A stretch of DNA of 64,000 nucleotides, taken from contig WGMZ01000031.1 of assembly GCA_016124735.1 (NCBI GenBank), positions 52,147-116,146 of the forward strand, given 5' to 3'. Every line of letters begins with the position of its first letter. Positions within the stretch are counted from its first letter, which is position 1. The notes below the pieces were generated by a model. That model worked only from the letters and a program-made list of their open reading frames with translations. It did no database searches and was not told where the DNA came from. Positions 7,433-35,944 of this stretch are shown piece by piece. The DNA comes from Bacteroidota bacterium (GTDB lineage: Bacteria > Bacteroidota > Bacteroidia > UBA8524). Made by a program: the position numbers and the translations under genes.

Positions 7433-7462
7433 TAAGCTTCGGCTACAGGCCGGCCTACTTTT

Positions 7463-9904: not shown

Positions 9905-9949
9905 TTCTGCCCACGGCAAGTAATCTACGTTTGACCAATTTCCTTACAT

Positions 9950-12538: not shown

Positions 12539-13079
12539 GGATTGTCCCGATGTTTGCCAAGGTGTAGGATTCGCTGAAAGCGCGTCAAATTTTCTTTATT
12601 TTTCCCAAAGATTAGGTATGCCGAGTCATCTTTTTCAATTTAGTATCCGTCAACTATTCTGGATTGCTTTGGCATTTGCAGGATGGGGATTTGTCTATGT
12701 TTTTCAGGAATTCGACTTCACCCGGTTTGAGTTTAGAATCGGCCAGTATGCGGAGGGTCATATTCCGGACGGAGAATCCTGGCGCTTCGCCGTGAACAAG
12801 AGCCTTCGTTTCTTTTTCAATGATTTGTTTTCCCTTTTGTTCATTTACGGATTATTCCAAAACAGGAATTATATCCGAATCGGTTTGGTGGTGATGGCCT
12901 TCGGGTTATTTCTTCTCTTACCCGTTTATCTGACTCTGGCCATTCTATACAAGGATTCTATCTTCCATCTATTGACCTTTTTGCACCGCATCACCATGAA
13001 TCCCTGGATGATGCTTTTATTGGTTCCTGCTTTTTATTTTATTCAGATGAAGAAGGATCAGGATGATTCCAGGGAGTAA
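12537..13079 (+). CDS. Exosortase F system-associated membrane protein (putative); the true start is possibly the internal Met near 12618
   Basis: This small polytopic membrane protein lies beside xrtF and fits the known pairing of XrtF with the 'exosortase F system-associated protein'. The N-terminus is uncertain. Confidence 0.4.
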   Translation: MDCPDVCQGVGFAESASNFLYFSQRLGMPSHLFQFSIRQLFWIALAFAGWGFVYVFQEFDFTRFEFRIGQYAEGHIPDGESWRFAVNKSLRFFFNDLFSLLFIYGLFQNRNYIRIGLVVMAFGLFLLLPVYLTLAILYKDSIFHLLTFLHRITMNPWMMLLLVPAFYFIQMKKDQDDSRE

Positions 13080-14583
13080 CCCCAAAACCTTCATGATAAA
13101 TCTTGAGGGTGTCGGGCACACATGGAGTAGGTGTATCGCCGCAATATATACAACTTTCAGGACGATAATAACTGTGAGGAGCGTTCACCCAATCCGGATT
13201 AATCACAGGATATGGAGTGGGGCTGATTAACATGGCAAGTGAAACCTTAAAACTATCTCCGCAGTGTAAGAGATGAAGGTTGGACTTTCCTGAAGTATTC
13301 ATCCATACCATTATGGCCAAGGCCATTCCAAAAACAGGGAGTTGGAAATTTTTCAGGATGCGTTGGGAAAAATCCTGCTGAAACATAAGCATGATTCCCG
13401 CAATTGCCAAACCCAGTCCGAAGCGATAATTCGGCGCCAGAACCACCCATAGTAGCAAAAATATTAAAGACCATACCGACCAGAACGGAACCCTACCTAC
13501 CTTCTCCTTTCTGAGGGTAAAAAGAAGATAGATCCCGGAACCCAGGATTAAAGCATTCATGATGACCTTGTAAGTCTTTAGATGAAACAAAGCCAAAAGG
13601 CGCTCTGTCCAGGAGAAGTCAGCGTTTAGCCAATCTTGGGCCGAATATCCTACGCCATAAATTTCCGCCAGTACTCCCCTACTAAATGCCAGTAGCATTT
13701 CATTTGGAAGGGTGTATGCTGCAGGCCACCAGCTGCTAGGCAATGGGAACAATACGTGTCCACTCAGTACCTGATTTTTCATCATCCATACGATTCCCAT
13801 CAGGACTGGCAACAGCGACCATCGAATAAATGATGATCTGTATTTTAACAAGGGATAGCAGCCGGCAAGGACCAATGAAAAGGCGGTGGCTTTCAGGCCA
13901 ATGATCAGAACCAGGAGCCATGACCAATCCTTCATCCTTAATTCTTTATGGTTTAGCAAGATGAAGCCTGTGAGTAAAATGATTGGTAAGTCGGGCGAAG
14001 GAGCGTTGAGAAATGGAGCACTCAATACCATTGCAAATGAAATTCCTGAAAGGGAGATTCCCTTTCGAAGCCCATCCACGCAAAAGATGAAAAGCAAAAG
14101 CCCATTAAAATTCCATATCCGGTCTGGAGTAATGGAATCCCAATAAAAGAATGAGGACAAGAGATGCCAGGATGAACCCAGTCCTAAACGAATATTCCAT
14201 TGGGCCAATCCTTCTTCAAATCCAAAGTCAGAAAACCATTTAATGCTCTGCAGGTAATAGGACAAATCATCATTAATCCATACCGGCAAGGATGAAATAA
14301 AGAGACAAGCCAAAAGTATCACGGTTTCCTTCCATTGCGCTGTTTTCAAGGAAAAAGCGCCATGCCTTCGATCCCGTATTTCGAGAAGGACAGCGCCAAG
14401 AAGAAAAAGGAGAAAAAAACGTGCGGGAAGGAAAAAGGACCAAAGATGTCCCAGCAACAGCCAGGCAGAGAGTCCGGAAACAAAATTGAGAAACAGCTGA
14501 TCTTCCCGATAGGTTCCTATTAACCGACTTAGCCTTAGGCTTGCCAGAAATAATAGCGTCCATGCAAGGAGGAGAAGCAGCAT
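13039..14583 (-). CDS. Large polytopic membrane protein of unknown function with a Cys/Pro-rich C-terminal tail. It is the last gene of the minus-strand polysaccharide operon.
   Basis: The 514-aa protein has more than 10 predicted TM helices. The C-terminus reads YYRPESCIYCGDTPTPCVPDTLKIYHEGFGVTPWNHPD. No family was recognised. It is co-directional and nearly contiguous with the upstream genes. Confidence 0.5.
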   Translation of the reverse strand: MLLLLLAWTLLFLASLRLSRLIGTYREDQLFLNFVSGLSAWLLLGHLWSFFLPARFFLLFLLGAVLLEIRDRRHGAFSLKTAQWKETVILLACLFISSLPVWINDDLSYYLQSIKWFSDFGFEEGLAQWNIRLGLGSSWHLLSSFFYWDSITPDRIWNFNGLLLFIFCVDGLRKGISLSGISFAMVLSAPFLNAPSPDLPIILLTGFILLNHKELRMKDWSWLLVLIIGLKATAFSLVLAGCYPLLKYRSSFIRWSLLPVLMGIVWMMKNQVLSGHVLFPLPSSWWPAAYTLPNEMLLAFSRGVLAEIYGVGYSAQDWLNADFSWTERLLALFHLKTYKVIMNALILGSGIYLLFTLRKEKVGRVPFWSVWSLIFLLLWVVLAPNYRFGLGLAIAGIMLMFQQDFSQRILKNFQLPVFGMALAIMVWMNTSGKSNLHLLHCGDSFKVSLAMLISPTPYPVINPDWVNAPHSYYRPESCIYCGDTPTPCVPDTLKIYHEGFGVTPWNHPDPSSSE

Positions 14584-14606
14584 GGGTGGAAGATACGAAG
14601 GAAAGT

Positions 14607-15614
14607 TTATTCCGCGGCGGCGTAGATTTTTTCGATGATTTCTACGACTTTCATGCCGTCTTCGCCGCGTGTTGCGATTGGAGCATTGTGTTTGAGAACG
14701 TCGATAACGTTTTGGATAACGAAGGCATGGTTCCCGGCACTTCCTTTGTAGCCGCCATAATCATTGGGTGGCAGGGATTCTTTTATTTCTGGAACATTAT
14801 AATCTTTAATATGAGCAAATTCTATTCTGTCCATATATTGGCCCCCAATTTTAAAGGCACCATTTTCTGCAAGGACTGTCATGCTGCTCTCCATATTCTC
14901 TTCGAAAACTGAAGTTGAAAACTGAATGCTACCAACTCCCCCATTCCGAAATTCGAAATGTACCATTCCACTGTCGGCAAATTCGGTAGAGTCGGTATGA
15001 TTGTGATTGAACAATCTGGTTTGAATATTTTGAATATCCCCAAACACCCAATACATCACATCGATAAAGTGGGAGAATTGGGTAAAAAGCACTCCACCAT
15101 CCAGTTCTTTTGTTCCCCGCCAATTGATTTCTGATTTCGGGCCGACTTGGTAGTAGCGCTTATCGCGGTTCCAGAAACAGCGAATATGTACTTCAAAGAT
15201 TTTTCCCAGTTGCCCGGACTCAAGCACCTCTTTCATCCAGATGGATGGAGGACTGTACCTGTTTTGCTTGACTACAAATACCTGACGGTTCAAGTCTTTT
15301 GCCAATTCTATCAACTCCCCACAGGAGGAGGATGATAGTCCCATGGGTTTTTCAATCAGCACATGCATTCCTGCCCGGACAGCTTTTTTGGCCATTGGGA
15401 GGTGCAATCCGTTGGGAAGTGCGATCACTGCAACATCTGCCTGTCCTCCTGAGGTCAGGAATTCCTCCAAGCTGGTAAAAAAAGGTTTCTTGTTTATCCA
15501 CTTCCCTTTATCGACATCGATGGTTCCTTCCAGCCTTGCTTCCGGATGCACTTCAATCAACGTTGCGTGTCGTTTTCCGATATGGCCATAACCGAGAAGT
15601 AGGAAGCGAATCAT
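14607..15614 (-). CDS. Gfo/Idh/MocA-family NAD(P)-dependent oxidoreductase (WbpB-like nucleotide-sugar dehydrogenase candidate)
   Basis: The N-terminal Rossmann motif is MIRFLLLGYGHIGKRH. The 335-aa length and fold pattern fit Gfo/Idh/MocA, and the gene sits in a sugar-modification context. Confidence 0.75.
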   Translation of the reverse strand: MIRFLLLGYGHIGKRHATLIEVHPEARLEGTIDVDKGKWINKKPFFTSLEEFLTSGGQADVAVIALPNGLHLPMAKKAVRAGMHVLIEKPMGLSSSSCGELIELAKDLNRQVFVVKQNRYSPPSIWMKEVLESGQLGKIFEVHIRCFWNRDKRYYQVGPKSEINWRGTKELDGGVLFTQFSHFIDVMYWVFGDIQNIQTRLFNHNHTDSTEFADSGMVHFEFRNGGVGSIQFSTSVFEENMESSMTVLAENGAFKIGGQYMDRIEFAHIKDYNVPEIKESLPPNDYGGYKGSAGNHAFVIQNVIDVLKHNAPIATRGEDGMKVVEIIEKIYAAAE

Positions 15615-15708
15615 TGGGCGAATTTATAAATCTCGGAGAACTAAACTCCATATAAAAGAAAACCCGTTGAATTGCTCCAACGGGTCTATAATAAAATACC
15701 ACTAATTA

Positions 15709-17055
15709 TCAGGCCGAAGCCGTTTGGTTTTGGGCTTTCTGAACTACCCCAATTCCGTAGTAAATGAACCCTTTATCTTTTAATTCGCTTGAATCATATA
15801 TGTTTCTTCCATCGAAAATGACCTTGTCATTCATAATTTCGGTCATTTGCTCAAAGTTCGGAAAACGGAATTCTGGCCATTCTGTGGCCAAAATTAAAGC
15901 GTCCACACCTTTGAGGGTATCATATTGTTCTGCACAGTATTCGATTTTGTTGCCAATCATATGTTTGGCTTCTTCCATTGCAACTGGGTCAAAGGCCTTT
16001 ACTTTAGCACCTGCACTAAGTAAATGCTCAATAATTACTAAAGATGGGGCTTCGCGCATATCGTCCGTTTTCGGCTTGAAGGAAAGTCCCCAGAATCCGA
16101 AGGTTTTTCCAGTGAGATCAGTACCAAAATGTGAAACCACTTTATTGTACATCACTTCTTTCTGTGCTTCATTCACTTCTTCAACAGCTGTAAGGACACG
16201 CATATTATACCCTTTCTCCGCTGCGGTTCTAATCAAAGCCTTCACATCTTTAGGAAAACAGGAGCCACCATATCCAATTCCCGGATAGATAAATTTTGTT
16301 CCAATCCGCGCGTCGGAGCCAATTCCTTTACGTACTAAATTTACGTCTGCACCAACAATTTCGCATAGATTGGCAATGTCATTCATGAAACTAATCTTTG
16401 TAGCGAGCATCGAATTTGCGGCATATTTTGTCATTTCCGCAGAAGGAATATCCATGAAAATTACCGGGTGCCCGTTCAGGGTAAATGGTTTATATAGTTT
16501 TGCCATTATTTCCTGAGCTTTTTGGGATGAAATCCCCACAACAATGCGATCTGGTTTCAGAAAATCTTCAATTGCCGCGCCTTCTTTCAGGAACTCAGGA
16601 TTTGAAGCAACGTCGTATTCAATATCCACATTGCGTTGTGCCAGAGCTTCTTTGATCGCACTGTTTACTTTTTCAGCCGTTCCTACCGGAACGGTCGATT
16701 TGGTAACCACAACACCATAATTATTCATATTTTCACCAATTTCACGTGCAACTGCCAACACGTACTTCAAATCAGCAGAGCCGTCCTCTCCAGGAGGAGT
16801 TCCCACAGCGATAAAAGCCACATCAGCACCCTTTATTGCATCTCCAAGATTCGTTGAAAACCGGAGACGTTTGGCCTCGTAATTCTTGATTACCATTTCC
16901 TCAAGACCTGGCTCATATATTGGCATGATACCATTTCTAAGTCCTTCTATCTTTTTCTGATCAATATCGACGCAGACTACATCTATTCCAACTTCAGCAA
17001 AACAAGTTCCTGTCACAAGTCCTACATAACCGGTTCCTACTACTACAATTTTCAT
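15709..17055 (-). CDS. ugd: UDP-glucose 6-dehydrogenase
   Basis: The N-terminus is MKIVVVGTGYVGLVTGTCFAEVG and the catalytic-Cys motif is GGSCFPKDVKAL. At 448 aa it fits the UDP-glucose/GDP-mannose dehydrogenase family. Confidence 0.9.
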   Translation of the reverse strand: MKIVVVGTGYVGLVTGTCFAEVGIDVVCVDIDQKKIEGLRNGIMPIYEPGLEEMVIKNYEAKRLRFSTNLGDAIKGADVAFIAVGTPPGEDGSADLKYVLAVAREIGENMNNYGVVVTKSTVPVGTAEKVNSAIKEALAQRNVDIEYDVASNPEFLKEGAAIEDFLKPDRIVVGISSQKAQEIMAKLYKPFTLNGHPVIFMDIPSAEMTKYAANSMLATKISFMNDIANLCEIVGADVNLVRKGIGSDARIGTKFIYPGIGYGGSCFPKDVKALIRTAAEKGYNMRVLTAVEEVNEAQKEVMYNKVVSHFGTDLTGKTFGFWGLSFKPKTDDMREAPSLVIIEHLLSAGAKVKAFDPVAMEEAKHMIGNKIEYCAEQYDTLKGVDALILATEWPEFRFPNFEQMTEIMNDKVIFDGRNIYDSSELKDKGFIYYGIGVVQKAQNQTASA

Positions 17056-17124
17056 GTTCTTAGGTAATTTCTGTGTTTTAAATAATTTTATTGCTCAGAA
17101 CTCTGAGGCAAAACCGACATCATT

Positions 17125-18273
17125 TCAATTGTTCTGCAATTCCAAAATCTTTTCTACAATTCTGGAAGCAGTTTTACCATCCCAAAGAGGTGGAACTTCT
17201 CCTTTTTTCCAATTTCCTTCGAAGAGTCTTTTCATGGCCGGTGCAATAGCCTTAGGATCTGTACCAAGCAATTCATTTGTTCCCATTTCAATAGTTTCAG
17301 GACGTTCTGTATTGTCGCGCAGGGTCATGCAGGGAATACCCATTACGGTGGTTTCTTCTGTGATTCCTCCTGAATCGGTGATTACAGCCTTACTATTTTC
17401 TACCAGGTAATTAAACTCCAGATAACCCAGTGGTTCTACCATTATCAATCTGTCATGGTGGATGTCTAAACCTTCCAGTATCTGACGCGTCCGGGGATGC
17501 ACCGGAAAAATCAATTTTAAGGATTCTGAATTATCAATGATTGCCTGAATCAAGTCCTTCAGCTTTGATTCTTCATCGACGTTAGCCGGACGATGCAAGG
17601 TCATGACAATATAGTTCCCTTTTTCCAGATTTTGTTCCTTCCAGCATTGCGGTTGGGTAAACCTGGGTCTCTGCTTTAATAGCGTATCGATCATGGTATT
17701 CCCTACCAGATGAATTTGATCTTCTCTGGCGCCAAGTTTCCTCAGATTATTATTTGCCAACTCTGTGGTGGTATAGAAGTGGTCTGTGATGCTGTCTGTA
17801 AGCATGCGGTTAATTTCTTCCGGCATGGTCAAATCATGCGATCTGATTCCCGCCTCCACGTGTGCAACTTCTATGTTTAGCTTTTTCGCTGCAATGGAAC
17901 AGGCCATGGTAGAAGTCACATCTCCAACCACTAAAGTGAGATTACAGGGCTTTTCCAACAATAATGCTTCATAGGCTACCATAATTTTTGCCGTTTGCTC
18001 AGCCTGGGTCCCCCCGCCAGCACCCAGGTTGACATCCGGCTCTGGAATTCCCAACTGCTCAAAAAATTGTTCTGACATATTCCGATCGTAATGCTGTCCG
18101 GTATGAACCAATCGGTATTCGAGTTTATTTCCCGTTTCCTGTGCGTCTTTGATTGCATCAATAATTGGAGCAATCTTCATGAAATTAGGGCGTGCGCCGG
18201 CGATAAGGTCTATAAGGTAATTCATACTTTGGTTTGAAAATAAAAAAGTAGAGATATACGAGAAATCAAACAA
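17125..18273 (-). CDS. wecB: UDP-N-acetylglucosamine 2-epimerase (non-hydrolysing)
   Basis: The segment IAGARPNFMKIAPI ... VHTGQHYDRNMS ... is characteristic of WecB/MnaA and the length is 382 aa. Confidence 0.9.
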   Translation of the reverse strand: MFDFSYISTFLFSNQSMNYLIDLIAGARPNFMKIAPIIDAIKDAQETGNKLEYRLVHTGQHYDRNMSEQFFEQLGIPEPDVNLGAGGGTQAEQTAKIMVAYEALLLEKPCNLTLVVGDVTSTMACSIAAKKLNIEVAHVEAGIRSHDLTMPEEINRMLTDSITDHFYTTTELANNNLRKLGAREDQIHLVGNTMIDTLLKQRPRFTQPQCWKEQNLEKGNYIVMTLHRPANVDEESKLKDLIQAIIDNSESLKLIFPVHPRTRQILEGLDIHHDRLIMVEPLGYLEFNYLVENSKAVITDSGGITEETTVMGIPCMTLRDNTERPETIEMGTNELLGTDPKAIAPAMKRLFEGNWKKGEVPPLWDGKTASRIVEKILELQNN

Positions 18274-19531
18274 TCATCCCTGCAGCCACCGTTTCATTTG
18301 TGGCTTCATCTACTAAAATTAAACTGCCGGTATTTCGGTTTTTTCGATAAGCATCTTTTAATACTGCCTTTGTGGTGCGAAGTTTTGCCCGGAAGATGTC
18401 GTTCATTCCGATATTTTTATCTGACTCGTCCTTGCTCAGGGAATTAATATTCAACTTATATATCACCTCCTTCACCATGGTTCGCATTTCATTACTTGTA
18501 TGGCGAAGGATATATTTTGAGGATGGATTCAAACCTCGGTTATTCAACCAGCACATCATCAATTCCAGGTCTTGGGTCGAATCTGGCTGATTATTAGGTT
18601 TTGCGAGCATATCTCCTCTGCTTACATCGATATCATCGTCGAGAGTCATAGTAACAGACATTGGAGGAAAAGCCTCGGACACTTTCTCTTCTCCAACCAT
18701 GATTTCTTTGATTTTCGATTTAAACCCACTCGGCAGAACAATGATCTCTTCGCCTGGGCGAAAAACCCCTCCGTCGATGCGACCGGCATAACCCCGGAAA
18801 TCGTGATATTCCTGCCTATGGGGACGAATTACCGTCTGAATCGGGAACCTAGCATCCAGGTGATTATAATCACTTCCAATATGAATATTTTCCAGCGTGT
18901 GCAGTAAGGTTGATCCTTCGTACCAGCTGGTTTTTGTGGAACGATTCACCACATTATCCCCTTCCAGGGCTGAAATAGGAATAAACCGAATATCCTGCAC
19001 ATCCAATTTGGAGGCAAAGGCTTCGTATGTTTTTACAATCTCGTTAAAACGTTCCTGGTCGTAATCAACAAGGTCCATCTTATTTACACACACAATAATG
19101 TGTGGTATTTGTAAAAGGGAGGCAATATAACTGTGGCGATAAGTTTGTTCAATCACCCCTTTTCTCGCGTCAATTAAAATCAATGCAAGGTTTGCTGTAG
19201 AGGCTCCAGTCACCATATTCCGGGTATACTGAATATGCCCGGGAGTGTCTGCAATAATGAATTTTCTGCGCGGTGTGGCAAAGTAACGGTAGGCCACATC
19301 GATGGTGATGCCCTGTTCTCTTTCGTCCTTGAGTCCATCGGTAAGTAAGGACAAATCAATATGTGCTAATCCTTTTTTCTGGCTGCTACCTTTCACTGCT
19401 TCCAGTTGATCCTCAAAGATGGATTTTGAATCGTACAATAAGCGACCGATTAAGGTACTTTTTCCATCATCTACGCTTCCAGCAGTGGTGAAGCGAAGCA
19501 GCTCCATATCCAAATAACCCGACTGTGTCAT
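18266..19531 (-). CDS. cysN: Sulfate adenylyltransferase subunit 1 (GTPase)
   Basis: The G1 motif GSVDDGKSTLIGRLL is followed by DTPGH, NKMD and an EF-Tu-like domain architecture. It is adjacent to cysD. Confidence 0.9.
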   Translation of the reverse strand: MTQSGYLDMELLRFTTAGSVDDGKSTLIGRLLYDSKSIFEDQLEAVKGSSQKKGLAHIDLSLLTDGLKDEREQGITIDVAYRYFATPRRKFIIADTPGHIQYTRNMVTGASTANLALILIDARKGVIEQTYRHSYIASLLQIPHIIVCVNKMDLVDYDQERFNEIVKTYEAFASKLDVQDIRFIPISALEGDNVVNRSTKTSWYEGSTLLHTLENIHIGSDYNHLDARFPIQTVIRPHRQEYHDFRGYAGRIDGGVFRPGEEIIVLPSGFKSKIKEIMVGEEKVSEAFPPMSVTMTLDDDIDVSRGDMLAKPNNQPDSTQDLELMMCWLNNRGLNPSSKYILRHTSNEMRTMVKEVIYKLNINSLSKDESDKNIGMNDIFRAKLRTTKAVLKDAYRKNRNTGSLILVDEATNETVAAGMIV

Positions 19532-19552
19532 GTTTTGTAATCCAAATAATTG

Positions 19553-20458
19553 TTAAAAATACCCTTGTTTTTTGCGGTCTTCCATTGCCGTTTCCGATCT
19601 TTTATCGTCGGCTCTAGTGCCTCTTTCCGTCATTCGTGTTGCTGCAATTTCGACGATGATATCTTCGAGTGTCGAGGCATTTGATTCAACGGCCCCGGTA
19701 ATAGGCATGTCGCCGCATGTGCGATAACGAACTGTTTTGGTCATTTTCACTTCATCTCCCCGCATATTCAGGTAATCGCTCACTGCGAGCAAAGTCCCAT
19801 TCCTTTCAATGACTTCGCGTTCATGTGCGAAATACAAAGAGGGCAGTGGAATATTTTCGGCAAGAATATATTGCCATACATCCATCTCGGTCCAGTTGCT
19901 AATTGGGAATACACGGAAATGTTCGCCCATATTCTTTTTGCCATTAAAAATGTTCCACAATTCCGGACGCTGATTTTTTGGATCCCATTGTCCAAAATCA
20001 TCCCGATGGGAAAAAAAGCGTTCTTTAGCTCGGGCTTTTTCTTCATCGCGGCGTGCGCCTCCCATTGCTGCATCAAACTTATTCGCTTCAATGGTGTCCA
20101 ATAAGGTAGTTGTTTGAAGTGCGTTCCGGCTGGCATTCAGGCCAGTCTCCTCCGCCACCTTACCCTGGTCGATAGAGTCTTGTACAAGACCCACAACCAA
20201 GCGGGCACCCAAATTTTCCACCAGTTTATCCCGGAAGTCAATGGTTTCCGGAAAATTGTGCCCGGTGTCTATATGCACCAGGGGAAAGGGAATCTTGGCC
20301 GGCCAAAATGCCTTTTTTGCGAGATGCGTAAGCACAATGCTGTCCTTACCTCCGGAAAATAAAATTGCCGGATTTTCAAATTGGGCAAAAACTTCGCGAA
20401 TCACAAAGATGGATTCTGCTTCAAGTTCCTGTAAATGTCTAAGCGAATAATTACTCAT
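19553..20458 (-). CDS. cysD: Sulfate adenylyltransferase subunit 2
   Basis: The PAPS-reductase-like PP-loop SGGKDS is present and the 301-aa length and CysD family pattern fit. It overlaps the cysC start. Confidence 0.9.
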   Translation of the reverse strand: MSNYSLRHLQELEAESIFVIREVFAQFENPAILFSGGKDSIVLTHLAKKAFWPAKIPFPLVHIDTGHNFPETIDFRDKLVENLGARLVVGLVQDSIDQGKVAEETGLNASRNALQTTTLLDTIEANKFDAAMGGARRDEEKARAKERFFSHRDDFGQWDPKNQRPELWNIFNGKKNMGEHFRVFPISNWTEMDVWQYILAENIPLPSLYFAHEREVIERNGTLLAVSDYLNMRGDEVKMTKTVRYRTCGDMPITGAVESNASTLEDIIVEIAATRMTERGTRADDKRSETAMEDRKKQGYF

Positions 20459-21053
20459 TCGTATGGATTCTGGGAATTATAAAATCAATAATATTATTTG
20501 TACAGACTTCTATATTCTGTAAATGGGTTGATACACGAAGTTCAGGATTTTCAGGAATTTCAAATGGCGAGTCGATTCCGGTAAAATTGCTAATCAAACC
20601 TTTCCTTGCCTTTTGGTATAAACCCTTTACATCGCGGCTTTCGCAAACTTCAACAGGACAATCTACATGGATTTCCACGAATGCATAACCAAGTATTTCA
20701 CGCGCCTGAAGGCGATCGCCAGCAAAAGGTGAAATGAAAGCGGTTAATACGACCAGTCCCGCGTCATTCATCAATTTAGCCACTTCTGAAATACGGCGGA
20801 TATTTTCAATTCTTCCTTTTGAGCTAAAATCAAGATCTTTATTCAGTCCGGTTCTTATATTGTCTCCATCGAGCAAATACGTTCGTATTCCTTTATCGGC
20901 CAGTGCTTGTTCCACAAGGTTAGCCAGAGTAGATTTCCCTGATCCTGAAAGCCCCGTAAACCAAAGAGTTTGCGACTTATGTCCGTTCAAACGCTCTCGA
21001 AAAACCCGATCGATCTTATGCTGATGAGGTATAATATGAAGTTTTTCAGTCAT
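20451..21053 (-). CDS. cysC: Adenylyl-sulfate (APS) kinase
   Basis: The Walker A motif LSGSGKSTLA is present and the 200-aa length and APS kinase pattern (LDGDNIR) fit. Confidence 0.9.
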   Translation of the reverse strand: MTEKLHIIPHQHKIDRVFRERLNGHKSQTLWFTGLSGSGKSTLANLVEQALADKGIRTYLLDGDNIRTGLNKDLDFSSKGRIENIRRISEVAKLMNDAGLVVLTAFISPFAGDRLQAREILGYAFVEIHVDCPVEVCESRDVKGLYQKARKGLISNFTGIDSPFEIPENPELRVSTHLQNIEVCTNNIIDFIIPRIHTNE

Positions 21054-22813
21054 GAATATTTGAATAATAACCAGGCCAACACAATTCCTGAATAAATAAT
21101 TGTCAAAGGTAGTCCGAATCGAATAAAATCAATAAAGCGATAATTTCCGGGACCATATACCATCAAATTAGTCTGATATCCGACTGGGGTCATGAAACTG
21201 CAGGAGGCTCCAAACGCCATAGCCATAAAAACACCCGTTAACTCTATATTGGCATGTGTCGCCATGGAAAGTCCCAAAGGAAATATCACAGAAATTGCTG
21301 CTGCATTGGTTATAAACTGGGTTAATAATGTAGTGGCAAAATAAACGAGGACGATAATGCTTCCTTTACCCATGTTGGCACTCCATTCAGATAATCCCGA
21401 ACTCACCCAATCTGCTGCCCCAGAACCAATTAATGCCTGGCTTAACGCCATGGCACTGCCCAGAATGATCAACAAATCCAAAGAAATATTCTTTTTCATC
21501 TGGTCGTAATTGCTCATTTTGAATGCAAGGGTCAATCCAAGCATTAATAAAAGCGTCACGAATAAAGAGTAGAAACCAAATGGAAGTCCTGCAAGAATCA
21601 GGGTGCTACCCAGAAGGTAGAGGTTCTTTTTTCTTTTGGGTAATTCCACGGTCTGACTGAGCTCTGAAACAATGTACAAATCCTTACCCGACCGCGCTTT
21701 TGAGAGAAAAGTCTTTCCTGCAGAAATCAAAAGCAAATCGCCCTTGTCCAGAACTATTTCTCCCAATTTTCCTCTAAGTTTTTCACCATTCCGGTGAATA
21801 GCAATTACCGCCGCATCGAGATTTTCCCGAAATGCATATTCCTTTAAAGTCGCGCCAATCAAGCCCGAATTGGCCGGAATCACACTTTCCATTACCTGCA
21901 TCCCATCTCCGATATCTAATTCGGAATGTGATGGAATTGTAAGTCCCTGAATCTTCCTGACCAATTCCAACACTTTTTCGGGTTCGCCGGCAAAAAACAA
22001 GCGATCCTCTTTTTGAACTCGTTCGTCAGGAGAAACAGGGCTCATGGCTATTTTATTTCGGATAATTTCAATCAGAAAAATCCCATCCAAATTTCGTAGC
22101 CCAGCTTCCTGTATTGTTTTTCCAACCAAAGCCGCTCCGTTTTCCACCTTAGTTTCTACGAGATATTCTTTAAAATTCTCGGTGACTTCGCGGATTAAAT
22201 CCGAATTATCAGGAAGCAACTTCTTAAAAAACAGCAATATATACACAATGCCCCCGATACTTACCAGGACTCCCGGTATCAGAAAGTCCATAATACCAGG
22301 GCTAGCGATTCCAGATTCCTGAATAAAACCAATAAGTATCATATTGGTTGAGGTGCCCAATACCGTAATCATTCCTCCCAATATTGTGGCATAGGATAAA
22401 GGTATAAGTAATTTTGAAGGAGAAACAGAATTCTTCTTCCCCCACTGGTATACGTAGGGAATCATCATAGCGACAATGGGGGTATTATTCATCACCGAGG
22501 ACAAACCTGCCACGGTAATTCCCATGCGAATTAAAAACTGACGGGGACTTCTCGCTCCTTTGTATAATTTATCAAAAGTCCCAACCAGATTAAAATGGCT
22601 ATTGACTGCAGAAGTCAGTATGATCAGCAGGAAAATGGTGATGACAGAAGCATTTGAATAGCCGGCAAGGAACTCATTTACAGGGATGGTTCCGGTAACC
22701 AGTAAAATGGTCGCAGCCCCTCCAAAAACATAAGAAGCTCTCCACCGGTCAATTAATAGAGTGACGATGGTGAGCGCCAAAACGGATAATACGAGTATAC
22801 TATCGGTCGTCAT
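21050..22813 (-). CDS. SLC13/DASS-family anion transporter with two internal TrkA-C domains (likely sulfate uptake)
   Basis: The 587-aa protein has N- and C-terminal polytopic halves separated by a soluble region of about 170 aa with TrkA_C-like character. It is co-operonic with cysDNC and cysQ. Confidence 0.75.
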   Translation of the reverse strand: MTTDSILVLSVLALTIVTLLIDRWRASYVFGGAATILLVTGTIPVNEFLAGYSNASVITIFLLIILTSAVNSHFNLVGTFDKLYKGARSPRQFLIRMGITVAGLSSVMNNTPIVAMMIPYVYQWGKKNSVSPSKLLIPLSYATILGGMITVLGTSTNMILIGFIQESGIASPGIMDFLIPGVLVSIGGIVYILLFFKKLLPDNSDLIREVTENFKEYLVETKVENGAALVGKTIQEAGLRNLDGIFLIEIIRNKIAMSPVSPDERVQKEDRLFFAGEPEKVLELVRKIQGLTIPSHSELDIGDGMQVMESVIPANSGLIGATLKEYAFRENLDAAVIAIHRNGEKLRGKLGEIVLDKGDLLLISAGKTFLSKARSGKDLYIVSELSQTVELPKRKKNLYLLGSTLILAGLPFGFYSLFVTLLLMLGLTLAFKMSNYDQMKKNISLDLLIILGSAMALSQALIGSGAADWVSSGLSEWSANMGKGSIIVLVYFATTLLTQFITNAAAISVIFPLGLSMATHANIELTGVFMAMAFGASCSFMTPVGYQTNLMVYGPGNYRFIDFIRFGLPLTIIYSGIVLAWLLFKYS

Positions 22814-23600
22814 TTCCGGCTTTCACAATAAACCAGGGATTTAACAGGTTTTCCTTGTTATAAGTCAATTCAATACCCGTTTCCGGGTTAAAGACGCGGC
22901 ATCCACTTGCCTTTGCGATTGCATGGCCGGCGGCAGTATCCCATTCCATGGTGGGAGCGAAACGGGGATAAATCTGAGCCGTGCCTTCCGCCACCATACA
23001 TATTTTCAATGAGGATCCGATGGATATCCATTCTATCTCCCCATGTTTTATTCTTAATTCTTGAATAAAAGACTCTGTTTCCCCCGAAAGATGGGACCTG
23101 CTACCAACAACAGTGTAAGGTTCACCTAGTGGTTGAGCAGATATTTTCACTTTCGAGGCATCAATTTCTTCCCATCCCGATTCTGGGTGAACTTTTTCGG
23201 CTTTATAACTCATTCCCGCATCCCCACCCCAATAAAGTTTCTTTAGTACCGGAGCATATACGACACCCCATACGGGTGCGCCGTTTTCTATCAATGCGAT
23301 GTTAACCGTAAACTCTCCATTTCTTTTGATGAATTCCTTGGTACCATCCAGGGGGTCCACCATCCAAAATCTTTTCCATTCACTTCTGTTCTCGTAGCAA
23401 TCCCTGCTCGATTCTTCACTTAGGACAGGAATACCGGTATCAGACAGATATTTAATAATTACCTGGTGTGCCTGCTCATCTGCCTCGGTCAATGGGCTTT
23501 TATCCTCCTTAAGCTCCACTTTGAATTCGTTTTCGTACACATTTAAAATTTTCCTGCCGGCTGCTAAGGCTGCTTCTAATGCTTGACGAAATTCACTCAT
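22800..23600 (-). CDS. cysQ: 3'(2'),5'-bisphosphate nucleotidase (PAP phosphatase)
   Basis: The inositol-monophosphatase-family metal-binding motif WMVDPLDGTKEF is present and the length is 266 aa. It lies adjacent to the PAPS genes. Confidence 0.8.
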   Translation of the reverse strand: MSEFRQALEAALAAGRKILNVYENEFKVELKEDKSPLTEADEQAHQVIIKYLSDTGIPVLSEESSRDCYENRSEWKRFWMVDPLDGTKEFIKRNGEFTVNIALIENGAPVWGVVYAPVLKKLYWGGDAGMSYKAEKVHPESGWEEIDASKVKISAQPLGEPYTVVGSRSHLSGETESFIQELRIKHGEIEWISIGSSLKICMVAEGTAQIYPRFAPTMEWDTAAGHAIAKASGCRVFNPETGIELTYNKENLLNPWFIVKAGNDDR

Positions 23601-23826
23601 TTGTAATGTGCTCTAATTTTAAATTCTGCTTCATTCCCATTGAATTTGAGGGTGTTCAAAGGTACTTAAGTTGTTCGGTAATTTCCTGTTTCTGAATGAT
23701 TTACTAAATTATCCCTTTCCATTGCAAACACGAATTCGGACATAGGTCAAATTGACTGATTGCCAAATGAGCATGCATTGCCAACATATTCTAATCAGAC
23801 GCAGAAGAATGCCTGTCCCAGAATTC

Positions 23827-24483
23827 TCAGACCGTAATGTCCGACTCCACCAATTCACCAGCACCAATGAAGGCCTTGTTTCCAACCAGAGTTGCTTTAA
23901 TAATTTGCGCTCCGGTTCCTATATACACATCATCGCCTATTTGTGCTCCACCACTGATCAAAACTCCCGACATGATGGTGCATCTGTTCCCAATGATTGC
24001 GTCATGATTTATTCCAACATGGAGATTCAACAAATTAAAACTCCCAATTTGAATATTCGTGGTAAGGATGACTCCTTGCTGAATGATATTACCTTGCCCC
24101 AAAAAAATATTTTCCGGATTCTGAAAGGAGACACCAGAATGAATAAGATTAGGAAAATAAAGATGAGTGTTCCGCGGTTTTCCCGAATCATCAATCAATT
24201 CATGCAGAATCTTAGACTTGAAAACCGGGTTGCCAATTGCGATAAAAACATCCGTATCTTCTTCAATATTAGCCAAATCAGTCAGAGATCCTTCTACTTC
24301 ATGGCCATTGATGTAGGTCCCCTTCTGCATTCCATCGTCAAAGAAAGAAATTATTGCATAATTGCCTCGTTTTTCGCATTTCAAAAGCGCGGCAACTTCT
24401 CTGCCCAATCCACCTGCTCCGACTATTGCTGCTTTCATGCCATGTGGAATTTCAAATCCAACGATATTTTCCTGAGTCTGCAA
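23827..24483 (-). CDS. NeuD/PglD-family hexapeptide-repeat sugar acetyltransferase
   Basis: The N-terminal Rossmann-like stretch KAAIVGAGGLGREVAALL is followed by C-terminal left-handed beta-helix hexapeptide repeats (IGNRCTIMSGVLISGGAQIGDDVYIGTGAQI). Confidence 0.7.
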   Translation of the reverse strand: MQTQENIVGFEIPHGMKAAIVGAGGLGREVAALLKCEKRGNYAIISFFDDGMQKGTYINGHEVEGSLTDLANIEEDTDVFIAIGNPVFKSKILHELIDDSGKPRNTHLYFPNLIHSGVSFQNPENIFLGQGNIIQQGVILTTNIQIGSFNLLNLHVGINHDAIIGNRCTIMSGVLISGGAQIGDDVYIGTGAQIIKATLVGNKAFIGAGELVESDITV

Positions 24484-24513
24484 TACAAGTTAATTTCCTC
24501 CGAGCTTTAGTGA

Positions 24514-25470
24514 TTATTTATTATCGGATTTGTTCAATACCAGTTTAGGTAATACCAATTTTAAGGTAGTGAATAAAACCAGTAGTGACATTAGTATAAT
24601 CAGGCTGATTTGTAATTTGTTCACACTGTAAATCAGAATGAGATTGATTGTAACCTGAGCAATGCCATATATCACTGCCACCAGAACATGAGGCCAAGCC
24701 AATTCATTAGCCAGTACCTGGTAAACATGCAGGCGGTGTGCTTTAAAGATATTTTCACCTCGAATCAATCTTTGAATAATTGTCAAAATGGAATCGGCAC
24801 CATACACAGAAAAAAACAGAATATATTCCCAACTTCTCGTTTGAATCATGAGTAGCAGCATCATAAAGGCCAGGATATAAGCCATCCCTACACTTCCAAC
24901 ATCCCCAGCGAAGGTTTTCGCTTTTTTTCGGACATTAAATAGTGCGAACACCAAATTACCCACCAGTAAAACCCGAATTAAGTCCGGGTCAATGAATTGA
25001 ATATCCAGATTGATTAAATAGTAAGATGCCAGAATAGAGGTAGAATAGAAAACTGTGATTCCATTAATTCCATCCATAAAGTTAAAGGCGTTAATCCAAC
25101 CGATAACTAGTACATAGGCAAGAATCCAATAGTGCCAATGAAAAGAAAAGATATTCAACTGGAGCAGAATTAAGCTTACACTAATGACGTGCATCAATAT
25201 TCTCAAGCGCCGGGAAAGATCAAATCTATCATCCAAAAAACTGATGCCGGCGATAAGAACCAGTCCACCTACAAACCATGAATATTGCATTCCAAACAAG
25301 GCATACCACGCAATAACGGCGAGGGTAAAAACAATACCTCCACCACGAATCGTTATAGAACTATGTGAGCTTCTCTCATTTGGCTTATCAATGATGTTGA
25401 ACTTGTCAGCCAACTTGAAATATCCCAGGATCAGGAGTAATAAGAGAATAAAAATGAGGAAATAAGTCAT
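24514..25470 (-). CDS. Polyprenyl-phosphate N-acetylhexosamine-1-phosphate transferase (WecA/WbpL/MraY family), the initiating transferase
   Basis: The protein is 318 aa and polytopic. The family signature NAFNFMDGINGI and DD-containing loops are present. Confidence 0.8.
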   Translation of the reverse strand: MTYFLIFILLLLLILGYFKLADKFNIIDKPNERSSHSSITIRGGGIVFTLAVIAWYALFGMQYSWFVGGLVLIAGISFLDDRFDLSRRLRILMHVISVSLILLQLNIFSFHWHYWILAYVLVIGWINAFNFMDGINGITVFYSTSILASYYLINLDIQFIDPDLIRVLLVGNLVFALFNVRKKAKTFAGDVGSVGMAYILAFMMLLLMIQTRSWEYILFFSVYGADSILTIIQRLIRGENIFKAHRLHVYQVLANELAWPHVLVAVIYGIAQVTINLILIYSVNKLQISLIILMSLLVLFTTLKLVLPKLVLNKSDNK

Positions 25471-26396
25471 TTTGAATTAAAGCTTTGTATGGTTTCCTTC
25501 AGTCCGTCACGAGCCGCAATAGGCATTCGTTCCCAACCAAGAGCAAGTTTAATTTTATCATTCGACACCAAGTAACTTTCCGTCAATTTTTGCAGTCTGG
25601 CAGAATTGAGTGGCAATTTAAGCATGTCTCCAGCCTTAGCCATAAACTGAATTATGGAAGGTGAAATATTCCATATTTTCCCTTTCTTCCCTATACTTTC
25701 ACCAATTAATTTGACCAAATCGTTGGTGGATAAATCTTCATCATCTGCAACATTATATGTCCCAGCTGGAAAATCATCCATTTCGCAAATATTCAGAATT
25801 ACCTCAGTCAGATTTCCTACCGATAAATAGGATCTTCTGTTTTCGAATGCTCCGAGTGGATAGGGCATTCCATTTTTCAGGAAACTGTATAGCAGGTTGA
25901 GATTTCCTTTGTTCCCAGGCCCGTGAATCATGCAGGGACGTAAGATAATCAAGCGTTTTCCTGCTGGAAGTGTTTTTGATTGAAGATAACTTTCTGCCTC
26001 GCGTTTAGAAGCTCCGTAAGGATTATCCACTTCAAAAGCATCTGTTTCTTTGAGGATTCCTTTCACAGAGGAAGCAACCGCCTTTACTGAACTCATGAAT
26101 ATAAAATGAGTTGCTGTTTCATCTGCCATAAAAGCTTCGAACACTTTTTCTGTGAGTCCGACATTTATCAAGTTATAATCGGAAGCCAGACTTTTGTTCT
26201 TCAAATCATGAGCCTTTCCTGCCAGATGTATCCATGCTTTGGCATGAATATTTGCGGCATCCAATTCGTCCCAGGTAATGGTTGCCGGATAAGATTTACT
26301 CCTCGAAATACCCATGACTTTATGCCCGGTAGCTACAAGTTTTAGAGCCAGATTCTTACCAACAAATCCGCTGATGCCAGTTATGACTATGTTCAT
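25467..26396 (-). CDS. NAD-dependent nucleotide-sugar epimerase/dehydratase (short-chain dehydrogenase/reductase, SDR, fold)
   Basis: The N-terminus is MNIVITGISGFVGKNL, with a YxxxK-type catalytic region. The length is 309 aa. Confidence 0.7.
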   Translation of the reverse strand: MNIVITGISGFVGKNLALKLVATGHKVMGISRSKSYPATITWDELDAANIHAKAWIHLAGKAHDLKNKSLASDYNLINVGLTEKVFEAFMADETATHFIFMSSVKAVASSVKGILKETDAFEVDNPYGASKREAESYLQSKTLPAGKRLIILRPCMIHGPGNKGNLNLLYSFLKNGMPYPLGAFENRRSYLSVGNLTEVILNICEMDDFPAGTYNVADDEDLSTNDLVKLIGESIGKKGKIWNISPSIIQFMAKAGDMLKLPLNSARLQKLTESYLVSNDKIKLALGWERMPIAARDGLKETIQSFNSK

Positions 26397-27577
26397 GAAA
26401 GGTAACCTAAAATAGATGCTGCCAGCTTATCATTAATAGCTGCCCGTGTAAAATCCTGTTTAAACTGAATACGCTCTTCCTCGTGGTATGTGTAATTCTT
26501 CAACTGTTCTACCATGCTTTGAACATCTCCCGGATCAAAGAGGATAGAATTGGGAACATTCTTGCGGATAAACTCATTGGCAAAACCGCCAACGCCGGCT
26601 ATAATGGGAATGTTATACGCACCCATTTCAAATATTTTGGATGGCAAGACTTTTTTAAAGGCATCGTAGTCGTTCAAATGCAAAAAGAAAAAGTCTGTGT
26701 TTTTATAAATCTCAAAAAGTTCCGACCTTTTTACAGGTGGGTGCAGTTCCACGTTCTTGGGCTTGAATTCTGCCAGGGCCTCTTCCAATTTGGCTTTTGC
26801 TCCACCGTCACCAATAACCAGAAACTCATACTGCCCTTCAAGTGCCTTTGCTGCCTGAGGAATAATCTTATGAAGACCTTGCCCTTCCCCCATATTTCCA
26901 GCATAAACGATTTTATAGGGTGGCTTTGGGTTGCGGGTGCTGGACATTTCCATCTCCAGAAAGGCATCATCTATTCCATTGGGAAATTCCGAATATTTCG
27001 GACGAGTATACTTTGCGAAATAAGGTTTAAATCCTCCTGAAATCAGGTTGATATGTTTGGCGTCGGAAAACGTCTTTTTCTCCACATACTTTAAAATCGG
27101 CAGCACCATGCTCTTAATCAATTTGTTCTGCAAAACATCTTTCATGGTATCCACAAAAATGTCGCGTATATCGAGATAAAGGGGTGCTTTCTTTTTCCTG
27201 GCAATTTTATACCCCAGATAGGCTGTAAATAAGCGGCTGCTGGAGGCAAATACCAAATCATACTTTTGTTGACGGGCTATTTTTTGAGCCTGTGAATAGT
27301 AATTATAGAATGACTTGATTTGATCCATGAACCCACTTTGATGTGTCGGTATCGCGATTCGGTGAATCGTCATGTTTCCCCGCCTTTCCAACTCAGGAGC
27401 TTCACTTTGAAAAGTGCTGTACCTATTGGGTTGCGTACTGATAATATCTATCTGGTTGTCCTCTCCGAATTTACTTGCCAGGGTCTTGGCTAAGGGGCTG
27501 TTTCGAAAAGAGCCGGCACATAAATCCGGCTCAAAATAGAAGGTTAAATAAAGTATCCTTTTCGGCTTGGTTTCCAA
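26393..27577 (-). CDS. Glycosyltransferase family 4
   Basis: The protein has a GT-B fold. Its C-terminal domain carries the GT4 EX7E-like region (GEGQGL ... E). Confidence 0.7.
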   Translation of the reverse strand: METKPKRILYLTFYFEPDLCAGSFRNSPLAKTLASKFGEDNQIDIISTQPNRYSTFQSEAPELERRGNMTIHRIAIPTHQSGFMDQIKSFYNYYSQAQKIARQQKYDLVFASSSRLFTAYLGYKIARKKKAPLYLDIRDIFVDTMKDVLQNKLIKSMVLPILKYVEKKTFSDAKHINLISGGFKPYFAKYTRPKYSEFPNGIDDAFLEMEMSSTRNPKPPYKIVYAGNMGEGQGLHKIIPQAAKALEGQYEFLVIGDGGAKAKLEEALAEFKPKNVELHPPVKRSELFEIYKNTDFFFLHLNDYDAFKKVLPSKIFEMGAYNIPIIAGVGGFANEFIRKNVPNSILFDPGDVQSMVEQLKNYTYHEEERIQFKQDFTRAAINDKLAASILGYLS

Positions 27578-27590
27578 TTTTCTTTTTTAA

Positions 27591-35888: not shown

Positions 35889-35944
35889 ATAAGTTAATTA
35901 TTGAATTCGGTTTTGTTTGTTATCTTTTGCTTTGATTGAAAAAA

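Follow-up and report, generated by a model that had tools for sequence, protein, structure and literature searches.

Within a 64,000-nucleotide stretch of contig WGMZ01000031.1 from a Bacteroidota bacterium (hereafter the window), five co-oriented genes probably form a module for PAPS supply and clean-up that sits in a Wzx/Wzy-type polysaccharide locus and feeds a cytoplasmic sulfotransferase encoded at 31128..30190. We report the identities, order and shared orientation of these genes, and their recurrence in other genomes. The first-pass annotation of this DNA had proposed PAPS as a sulfuryl donor in place of an assimilatory role. The donor part of that reading is well supported, on firmer grounds than those first given: the sulfotransferase in the same locus, relatives whose polysaccharide loci contain the cassette close to sulfotransferases, and published precedents. 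As judged from its genes, the organism most likely makes a sulfated polysaccharide.

The cassette lies entirely on the minus strand, and its transcription order is cysQ, permease, cysC, cysD, cysN:
22800..23600, minus strand: cysQ, 3'(2'),5'-bisphosphate nucleotidase (PAP to AMP), first gene of the cassette
21050..22813, minus strand: permease, SLC13-like / SAC1-SLT-like, with two central TrkA_C (RCK_C) domains
20451..21053, minus strand: cysC, APS kinase (APS to PAPS)
19553..20458, minus strand: cysD, ATP sulfurylase small subunit
18266..19531, minus strand: cysN, ATP sulfurylase GTPase subunit, without a fused kinase domain

All five open reading frames were placed and named correctly at first reading, with CysQ, CysC, CysD and CysN above NCBIfam cut-offs. 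CysQ exceeded the equivalog model TIGR01331 (279.8 bits, cut-off 228.8), also matched Pfam Inositol_P, scored below the cut-off of the enterobacterial model NF008182 (241.7 vs 379), and showed no hydrophobic segments when scanned for them. CysC matched NF003013 at 263.5 bits (cut-off 163) and Pfam APS_kinase at E 1e-65, CysD matched NF003587 at 465.9 bits (cut-off 195) and TIGR02039 at 436 bits (cut-off 396.6), and CysN matched TIGR02034 at 549 bits (cut-off 336.1). CysD, CysN and CysC, each over a curated cut-off, are the predicted PAPS-synthesis set. The GC content of the cassette, looked at for signs of a horizontally inserted island, is 0.43, like that of its flanks.

Because the cassette is on the minus strand, two earlier statements are reversed: it begins rather than ends at cysQ, and cysQ precedes the transporter instead of directly following it. 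Three junctions overlap (cysQ-permease by 14 nt, permease-cysC by 4 nt, cysC-cysD by 8 nt), cysD and cysN are separated by a 21-nt spacer, and wecB begins 40 nt after cysN, at an ATG (18225) that both the gene caller and the TIGR00236 alignment favour. The claim that all of these genes are translationally coupled holds at the three overlaps and fails at the cysD-cysN spacer, at the gap before cysQ and at the 40 nt before wecB. Two features bear on the extent of the transcription unit:
23601..23826, minus strand: intergenic gap of 226 nt upstream of cysQ, a possible internal promoter
15660..15687, minus strand: terminator-like hairpin, its 12-bp stem leading into a T-rich run

A single match to the Bacteroidota-type box TAnnTTTG lies upstream of cysQ (23664..23657) and is only a weak lead, since the box shows no enrichment across the window (43 matches vs 59.6 expected). 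A sigma-70 scan gave background numbers (31 sites found vs 27.7 expected), and Rfam had no match anywhere in the window, the 226-nt gap included. Downstream of the cassette no terminator-like site was found before 15687..15660, where the hairpin (RNA fold -17.2 kcal/mol, z -3.1) is likely the 3' end of the cassette's transcription unit. We infer co-transcription of the cassette with the other genes of the locus, the 226-nt gap before cysQ making it less certain for the upstream ones.

The assembly and export genes, the sulfotransferase and the PAPS genes all belong to one locus:
13039..48732, minus strand: whole Wzx/Wzy-type polysaccharide locus holding the cassette, from Pfam and NCBIfam scans
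47857..48732, minus strand: Wza
45448..47847, minus strand: Wzc
41095..42345, minus strand: Wzx
37116..38297, minus strand: Wzy-like membrane protein
24514..25470, minus strand: WbpL/WecA-type initiating transferase
23827..24483, minus strand: PglD-like acetyltransferase, upstream of cysQ
17125..18225, minus strand: wecB/wbpI-type UDP-HexNAc (UDP-GlcNAc) 2-epimerase (TIGR00236, 328 bits vs 210), immediately downstream of cysN
15709..17055, minus strand: UDP-sugar 6-dehydrogenase with three UDPG_MGDP_dh domains, last before the terminator-like hairpin
14607..15614, minus strand: Gfo/Idh/MocA oxidoreductase
13039..14583, minus strand: LIC_10190-family membrane protein

Three GT4 glycosyltransferases, two AsnB-like amidotransferases, an ATP-grasp protein, a HAD protein and an aminotransferase are also encoded. 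Polysaccharide genes do lie on both sides of the cassette, as had been noted, with the PglD-like acetyltransferase upstream and the WecB-type epimerase downstream; together with the UDP-sugar dehydrogenase and the Gfo oxidoreductase further downstream, they represent one nucleotide-sugar pathway.

The sulfotransferase, overlooked by the first-pass annotation, is encoded 6.6 kb upstream of the cassette in the same minus-strand locus, between amidotransferase and glycosyltransferase genes:
30190..31128, minus strand: sulfotransferase of the PAPS-dependent type; gene callers start it at ATG 31119 (309 aa)

It matched Sulfotransfer_3 (PF13469; 120.9 bits vs 27, E 1.2e-34) and Sulfotransfer_1 (PF00685; 42.5 vs 22, E 6.6e-11), and its sequence matches in the PDB were 4gox and TPST1/2. 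The 5'-PSB loop GVGRSGTSLL aligns with GVPRSGTTLM of TPST1 and the 3'-PB motif RDPRDVVLS with RDGRASVHS, and a scan for membrane segments found none.

In the mechanism we propose, the SLC13-like permease would bring in sulfate, its presumed substrate, from which CysD and CysN would make APS; CysC would phosphorylate APS to PAPS, the cytoplasmic sulfotransferase would use this PAPS, and CysQ would clear PAP, the inhibitory by-product. The target of sulfation would be the undecaprenyl-diphosphate-linked repeat unit, or a precursor, before the Wzx flip, the timing and the acceptor sugar both being presumptive. Sulfation would have to precede the flip because polymerisation takes place outside the cytoplasm, where PAPS is absent. 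Wzy would then polymerise sulfated, uronic-acid-rich and probably amidated units, and Wzc and Wza would export what may be a sulfated polymer. Sulfation before the flip has a parallel in Halobacterium salinarum, where assembly of a lipid-linked glycan at the cytoplasmic face and its sulfation both come before flipping (PMC12624080). There the sulfation, by Agl30/Agl31, is coupled to uronic-acid C5-epimerisation, which it follows, by Agl32, an epimerase described as unrelated to the C5-epimerases known otherwise (PMC12624080); unlike the window polysaccharide, the product is an archaeal, dolichol-linked protein glycan.

The nearest relatives repeat this gene order (cysQ-permease-cysC-cysD-cysN), again within polysaccharide loci and often with sulfotransferases. 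Two of these loci (L002 and L003) carry permeases 58% and 54% identical to that of the window, and no sulfotransferase was seen within 10 kb upstream in either. Pontibacter flavimaris (L005) has the same order with a sulfotransferase two genes downstream, and a JGI contig has it with Wzx, sulfotransferase and Wzy directly downstream. The closest homologue of the window sulfotransferase is in Christiangramia, in a locus that opens cysN-cysQ-ST-ST-Wzx-Wzy. The sulfotransferase homologues in L086-L089 sit inside Wza/Wzc/Wzx loci; in three of four sulfotransferase-anchored loci no PAPS genes were found within 10 kb. Our first sulfotransferase HMM was too narrow, and an iterated HMM yielded five more candidates, all confirmed by Pfam. 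In L006, L043, L059, L074 and L075, loci from two phyla, the permease gene has a Pfam-confirmed sulfotransferase no more than 10 kb away. In the 113 ORFs beside 13 other full cassettes, nucleotide-sugar and polysaccharide enzymes were the commonest Pfam families, and no PAPS reductase or sulfite reductase family recurred.

The placement of a PAPS module with a sulfotransferase in a polysaccharide locus is already known from other bacteria. The per-gene order of Bacteroides thetaiotaomicron BT_0411-BT_0415 is, we believe, cysQ-transporter-cysC-cysD-cysN. This PAPS cluster adjoins the sulfotransferase BT_0416; BT_0412 is a predicted sulfate importer and BT_0413-0415 complete PAPS synthesis, per-gene identities not being given (PMC9417993). 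Both systems belong to the same phylum and have a predicted sulfate importer inside a PAPS cluster serving a PAPS-dependent sulfotransferase, and the window order fits the published outline of BT_0411-0415 (PMC9417993), a likeness by description and not by comparison with the BT sequences. The Bacteroides sulfotransferase is encoded right beside its PAPS cluster and sulfates steroids, cholesterol among them, whereas that of the window lies 6.6 kb away within a Wzx/Wzy locus, and sugar-nucleotide genes flank the window cassette on both sides, unlike BT_0411-0415.

Two sulfated capsule gene clusters offer a further comparison. In Cobetia marina KMM 1449, whose capsule is sulfated by chemical proof, one cluster contains cysNC, cysD and cysQ along with a sulfate permease and sulfotransferases (PMC11766843). 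For Vibrio sp. KMM 8419, the presence of PAPS genes and sulfotransferases in a polysaccharide cluster was described as a 'hallmark' of making sulfated polysaccharides (PMC11641403). The window shares with both the PAPS genes and sulfotransferase in a polysaccharide cluster, and with Cobetia only the cysQ and, by description, the sulfate permease. Their polymers are chemically shown to be sulfated, whereas the window organism is an uncultured MAG known from its genes; they are Gammaproteobacteria with ABC-transporter (Kps) export, the window locus is of the Wzx/Wzy type, and CysN and CysC, fused in Cobetia, are separate here. Rhizobial NodPQ/NodH offers another likeness: an additional set of sulfate-activation genes is devoted to supplying PAPS for a carbohydrate sulfotransferase of the Sulfotransfer_3 type, the type also matched here. 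That set is plasmid-borne, has neither transporter nor cysQ, and the sulfate goes to a lipo-chitooligosaccharide signal. PMC11625862 mentions NodH and KpsS.

As first reported, the window contains no cysH, sulfite reductase or cysK, with no match among its 53 ORFs of at least 150 aa, where the sole PAPS_reduct match is CysD itself. A further 7-10 kb on each side (~84 kb in all) held none of these and no further cys genes. Parts of the first argument from these genes do not hold. The lack of cysH from 64 kb is weak evidence, and cysQ is first and not last in the cassette. Reduction of PAPS by CysH, as in E. coli, needs a PAP phosphatase equally, so the presence of CysQ does not discriminate between the donor and assimilatory routes. 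A rather unlikely alternative is dual use: this would be the organism's only cysDN/cysC set, with PAPS or APS going both to cysteine (cysH and sulfite reductase lying elsewhere) and to polysaccharide sulfation. Nothing within the window speaks against this, and a separate promoter responding to sulfur status could lie in the 226 nt that precede cysQ. Dual use fits less well with the lack of a recurring reductase family beside the 13 other full cassettes and with Bacteroides, which depends on reduced sulfur yet probably carries the same cassette. The Vibrio precedent also argues otherwise, its cluster-borne cysC/N/D being a second copy beside housekeeping genes (PMC11641403).

The permease is a predicted sulfate importer. 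Its Pfam matches are CitMHS (157.6 bits), Na_sulph_symp at the C-terminal end (47 bits, cut-off 27) and two TrkA_C domains (80.8 bits); hydrophobic segments span residues 1-201 and 400-585, and the TrkA_C pair occupies the central loop between these membrane halves. The description of a DASS transporter with a TrkA-C insertion stands as to the two TrkA_C domains. The insertion is not special to this gene, since all 120 permease homologues listed have PF02080 (TrkA_C), and the DASS model TIGR00785 was matched below cut-off (92.1 bits vs 198.6, residues 418-581 only); given this miss and the CitMHS placement, we file the permease as SLC13-like and not as a canonical DASS member. At residue 536 the sequence ASCSFMTPVGYQTNLMV fits what we take to be the PROSITE pattern PS01271, the signature of Na:sulfate symporters, which 53 of the 120 homologues listed also match.

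Scanned against GTDB on its own, the permease sequence found no relative, and an alignment query was needed. The nearest permease is 58% identical, and GTDB holds no close representative of the organism. Relatives of the permease directly adjoin cysQ/C/D/N in 31 of 80 GTDB loci. Between the two substrates first suggested, sulfate or dicarboxylate, this adjacency in 31 of 80 genomes and the signature favour sulfate, and regulation through TrkA_C is plausible. The central TrkA-C pair and the signature recall, by description and not by direct sequence comparison, the algal SAC1/SLT Na+/sulfate transporters, whose SLC13-like halves are split by cytoplasmic TrkA-C domains, two in SAC1 (PMC8780407, PMC3355512); those are eukaryotic proteins of sulfur acclimation, unlike the window permease.

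A different anion (a dicarboxylate, thiosulfate or a nucleotide such as PAPS or PAP), or a sensing role like that of SAC1, is about as unlikely as dual use. The missed DASS cut-off and the best Pfam match to CitMHS would agree with it, as would several Bacteroidales MAGs in which a permease relative accompanies cysQ alone, without cysC/D/N within 10 kb, and SAC1 is itself discussed as a sensor (PMC8780407, PMC3355512). It sits poorly with the signature and with relatives that directly adjoin cysC or cysDN in many genomes of several phyla, and both BT_0412 (PMC9417993) and the Cobetia permease (PMC11766843) are read as sulfate importers; PAPS export would be needless for a cytoplasmic sulfotransferase.

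As to the acceptor, the surrounding genes suggest a repeat-unit sugar. Sulfation of a lipid or small molecule instead, comparable to cholesterol sulfation by BT_0416, seems improbable: the Bacteroides cassette does serve a steroid sulfotransferase (PMC9417993), and the best PDB matches are polyketide and tyrosyl-protein sulfotransferases and not carbohydrate ones, but the gene lies between those for an amidotransferase and glycosyltransferases, and the L086-L089 homologues likewise occupy Wza/Wzc/Wzx loci. Least probable of all is a purely assimilatory cassette in a polysaccharide locus by coincidence, the first-pass annotation's own refutation scenario: cysDN, cysC and cysQ are ordinary assimilatory members in enterobacteria, but here they are co-oriented and enclosed by genes of a single sugar pathway, distant relatives show the same embedding, the sulfotransferase of the locus needs PAPS, and no reductase genes lie within ~84 kb.

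Alongside its role as the predicted consumer of PAPS, the sulfotransferase belongs to a conserved triad (31128..27591), also present in Christiangramia, Roseivirga and two MAG loci, with two further members:
29135..30190, minus strand: uncharacterised beta-propeller protein, kept beside the sulfotransferase
27591..29138, minus strand: heparinase II/III-like protein without a signal peptide

The beta-propeller protein, whose gene also adjoins the sulfotransferase in L086-L089, had no Pfam or NCBIfam match; its AlphaFold model (pLDDT 94.5) retrieved only generic propellers in Foldseek (TM-scores up to 0.59, 6-14% identity). The heparinase-like protein matched Hepar_II_III_C (E 2e-44) and Hepar_II_III_N (E 7e-16), with a weak PDB match to heparinase III, and we infer only that it may be a C5-epimerase-like or lyase-fold modifier. 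It is a speculative idea, about as doubtful as another anion for the permease, that the triad is an undescribed bacterial modification module in which a uronic acid of the lipid-linked repeat is first epimerised, or otherwise acted on at C5, by the cytoplasmic lyase-fold protein and next sulfated by the sulfotransferase. If true, the outcome would be a sulfated, glycosaminoglycan-like polymer from environmental Bacteroidota, its cofactor supplied by the PAPS cassette.

The locus leaves the understanding of sulfur metabolism unchanged. To our knowledge, few bacteria are documented as makers of sulfated polysaccharides, and prokaryotic carbohydrate sulfotransferases are barely characterised. The combination of cysQ, permease and cysCDN with a sulfotransferase in a Wzx/Wzy locus is a recurring and easily recognised signature in Bacteroidota, cultured Pontibacter and Christiangramia relatives included, and it could guide the search for sulfated-glycan producers and their enzymes.

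Family scans place the five-gene sulfate-activation cassette of the window within one long minus-strand polysaccharide locus (~48732 to 13039), which also encodes a sulfotransferase 6.6 kb upstream of cysQ that was absent from the first-pass annotation. The parts of this locus, in order of transcription, are as follows.

5' part, minus strand: Wza, Wzc, UDP-sugar dehydrogenase, epimerase, Wzx flippase
Next, minus strand: class I/II aminotransferase, HAD protein, ATP-grasp protein, Wzy-like membrane protein
Next, minus strand: three GT4 glycosyltransferases, two AsnB-like amidotransferases
Next, minus strand: sulfotransferase, protein without a family match, heparinase II/III-like protein
Next, up to the cassette, minus strand: NAD-dependent epimerase, WbpL/WecA-type initiating transferase, PglD-like acetyltransferase
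3' of the cassette, minus strand: WecB-type 2-epimerase, UDP-sugar dehydrogenase, Gfo/Idh/MocA oxidoreductase, LIC_10190-family membrane protein

The sulfotransferase is on the minus strand at 31128..30190 (gene callers start it at 31119) and matches Sulfotransfer_3 (E 1.2e-34) and Sulfotransfer_1. By sequence it matches solved PAPS-dependent enzymes, namely the olefin-synthase sulfotransferase 4gox (E 3e-11) and tyrosylprotein sulfotransferases 1 and 2, and both cofactor loops align (GVGRSGTSLL with GVPRSGTTLM, RDPRDVVLS with RDGRASVHS). Neither it nor CysQ contains a hydrophobic segment. The family match, the cofactor loops and the lack of such a segment together indicate that the locus encodes a cytoplasmic consumer of PAPS, which supports the initial proposal that PAPS acts here as a sulfuryl donor.

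That proposal had been built on the absence of cysH, sulfite reductase and cysK, which was borne out: no PAPS/APS reductase, sulfite reductase or cysteine synthase was found among all 53 window ORFs of at least 150 aa, nor in the 7–10 kb flanking either window end. The predicted sulfotransferase is nonetheless far stronger evidence for PAPS consumption than the missing cysH. The presence of cysQ, previously taken as a mark of sulfotransferase flux, does not discriminate, because the PAPS-reductase pathway needs CysQ equally. A dual role, in which this is the sole cysDNC set and also serves sulfate assimilation, we consider unlikely.

All five ORFs of the cassette (18266..23600) are read from the minus strand, and family scans agree with the gene names first given to them.

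22800..23600, minus strand, CysQ (TIGR01331, 279.8 bits against a cut-off of 228.8)
21050..22813, minus strand, permease of 587 aa (CitMHS match, two TrkA_C stretches, C-terminal Na_sulph_symp match)
20451..21053, minus strand, CysC (NF003013, 263.5 against a cut-off of 163)
19553..20458, minus strand, CysD (NF003587, 465.9 against a cut-off of 195)
18266..19531, minus strand, CysN (TIGR02034, 549 against a cut-off of 336.1)

Given the strand, transcription runs cysQ, permease, cysC, cysD, cysN, so that the cassette starts with cysQ rather than ending there as first described. Full translational coupling is only partly correct: cysQ and the permease gene overlap by 14 nt, permease and cysC by 4 nt and cysC and cysD by 8 nt, but a 21-nt spacer separates cysD from cysN, a 226-nt gap lies 5' of cysQ, and cysN is 40 nt from the downstream epimerase gene, taking the ATG at 18225 that the gene caller and the TIGR00236 alignment prefer. 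Polysaccharide genes do lie on both sides, with the PglD-like acetyltransferase upstream and the WecB-type 2-epimerase downstream. No terminator-like hairpin was found between the acetyltransferase gene and cysQ. A strong one at 15687..15660 (minus strand; 12-bp GC-rich stem followed by a T-rich run, z -3.1), 22 nt past the UDP-sugar dehydrogenase stop, probably ends the cassette-bearing transcription unit, and the Gfo and LIC_10190 genes would then be transcribed separately.

Elsewhere in the locus, 31103..35888 and 38386..41108 (minus strand) hold the two AsnB-like amidotransferases, the ATP-grasp protein, the HAD phosphatase and the class I/II aminotransferase, a set suggesting that uronic acids of the repeat unit are amidated or decorated with amino acids. 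By the 3' end, on the opposite strand (5595..11269, plus), are genes for a histidine kinase and response regulator, for an 813-aa protein that matched no family and for a second flippase-like protein (Polysacc_synt_3/MurJ-like); synteny of the kinase–regulator pair with the LIC_10190-family gene (13039..14583, minus strand) is kept in L003, a permease-anchored locus of another genome. Outside the locus and unrelated to the cassette are a bacterial WD40-repeat protein (372 aa, 56057..57175, minus strand) and a DUF4175 protein (1108 aa, 59654..62980, minus strand).

The permease had been called an SLC13/DASS transporter with TrkA-C domains. The TrkA_C pair stands, but the protein scores 92 bits on the curated DASS model TIGR00785 (cut-off 198.6), and we therefore describe it as SLC13-like and not as a canonical DASS transporter. 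The pair sits between two membrane halves and is family-wide among homologues, not an insertion special to this transporter. The same layout is published for the algal SAC1, a relative of SLT Na+/sulfate transporters (PMC8780407, PMC3355512), and the permease matches a Na:sulfate symporter signature. These features, and how closely the gene is linked to cys genes across genomes, make sulfate import the best reading, and the Bacteroides counterpart BT_0412 is likewise read as a sulfate importer (PMC9417993). The TrkA_C pair could plausibly regulate transport. In six loci from Bacteroidales, Flavobacteriales and other MAGs (L014, L015, L017, L019, L036, L083), the permease is paired with cysQ only and no cysC, cysD or cysN lies within 10 kb, which would be odd were it solely an importer of sulfate for activation.

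The permease shares 58% identity with its nearest homologue, and searching GTDB with it as a single protein, at one genome per species, gave no match, implying a poorly represented lineage; the window also holds a type IX secretion tail protein, consistent with Bacteroidota. The loci of the closest permease homologues, L002 (58% identical) and L003/L004 (54%), share the order cysQ-permease-cysC-cysD-cysN, and in each the cassette closes a series of glycosyltransferase, epimerase, acetyltransferase and Gfo genes. In the cultured Pontibacter flavimaris (GCA_001907195.1, 91-113 kb of LVWA01000005.1) this cassette likewise occurs among glycosyltransferases, with a sulfotransferase two genes downstream, and on a JGI contig from a further relative the cassette is followed directly by Wzx, sulfotransferase and Wzy. 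An extra gene for a ~475-aa FAD/NAD(P) oxidoreductase (Pyr_redox_2/NAD_binding_9) lies between cysD and cysN in L003 (13257-14705) and between the permease gene and cysC on the JGI contig (7993-9411), and is absent from the window.

A profile-based GTDB scan with the permease returned 80 loci. A cysQ, cysC, cysD or cysN gene lay within 10 kb in 33 of them; in 31 it was the immediate neighbour of the permease gene and shared its strand, and 13 contained cysC, cysD and cysN together; cys-linked loci span Bacteroidota, Bacillota, Balneolaceae, Planctomycetota and Proteobacteria. Among 113 ORFs around the 13 full cassettes, nucleotide-sugar and polysaccharide enzymes were the commonest Pfam families (Epimerase 7, Polysacc_synt_2 6, UDP-sugar dehydrogenase, GT1, GT2 and Wzx-type 3 each), and no reductase family was among those hit at least twice. 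Iterating a sulfotransferase profile brought out such genes close to the permease in five loci, one more from Bacteroidota and four from Bacillota, and Pfam confirmed each of them. The closest sulfotransferase homologue (from the cultured Christiangramia sp. SM2212, GCA_031344135.1, 53% identical) belongs to a locus beginning cysN-cysQ-ST-ST-Wzx-Wzy, whereas the other three sulfotransferase-anchored loci have no PAPS genes within 10 kb; the linkage is thus frequent, not obligatory.

In the window and in each of the four loci examined that are anchored on the sulfotransferase (one in Christiangramia, one in Roseivirga, two in MAGs), the polysaccharide genes include a triad: the sulfotransferase, a beta-propeller protein and a heparinase II/III-like protein.

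Window, 27591..31128, minus strand, triad
L086, 10001-13604, triad
L087, 10001-13555, triad
L088, 10001-13509, triad
L089, 8946-12537, triad with sulfotransferase and beta-propeller genes in swapped order

A GT4 and a WecB-type epimerase usually follow. The second member (351 aa in the window, no Pfam family) is modelled confidently as a beta-propeller (pLDDT 94.5) for which a structure search found no specific relative; Arg, His, Asp, Glu and Tyr residues are invariant among homologues, many of which come with a longest contig equal in length to that of a sulfotransferase homologue, suggesting that the two share contigs. The heparinase II/III-like protein has no signal peptide and is predicted to be cytoplasmic. 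We speculate that the triad might modify uronic acids, for example by C5 epimerisation coupled to sulfation. Just upstream of the L089 triad (416-8795) are three secreted sulfatase genes, two with type IX secretion tails, and this locus joins predicted sulfation and desulfation functions.

We hypothesize that sulfate would be imported and converted by CysDN to APS and by CysC to PAPS, that the cytoplasmic sulfotransferase would consume the PAPS, and that CysQ would then hydrolyse the PAP. Since Wzx/Wzy polymerisation takes place outside the cytoplasm, sulfation must precede it, and its acceptor would be either the lipid-linked repeat unit or a precursor made before that. A precedent is known from Halobacterium, where a dolichol-linked tetrasaccharide is sulfated and then flipped (PMC12624080). 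Among the closest systems, the Bacteroides PAPS cluster BT_0411-0415 serves the steroid sulfotransferase BT_0416 (PMC9417993), and the Cobetia marina capsule cluster carries cysNC, cysD, cysQ, a sulfate permease and sulfotransferases, its polymer being proven sulfated by structure (PMC11766843). A Vibrio capsule cluster has second copies of cysC, cysN and cysD, and its authors regard PAPS genes with sulfotransferases inside a polysaccharide cluster as a hallmark of sulfated polysaccharide synthesis (PMC11641403). This kind of locus is already known; the window extends it to an uncultured lineage of Bacteroidota, one with a Wzx/Wzy pathway and a sulfated polysaccharide as its predicted product.
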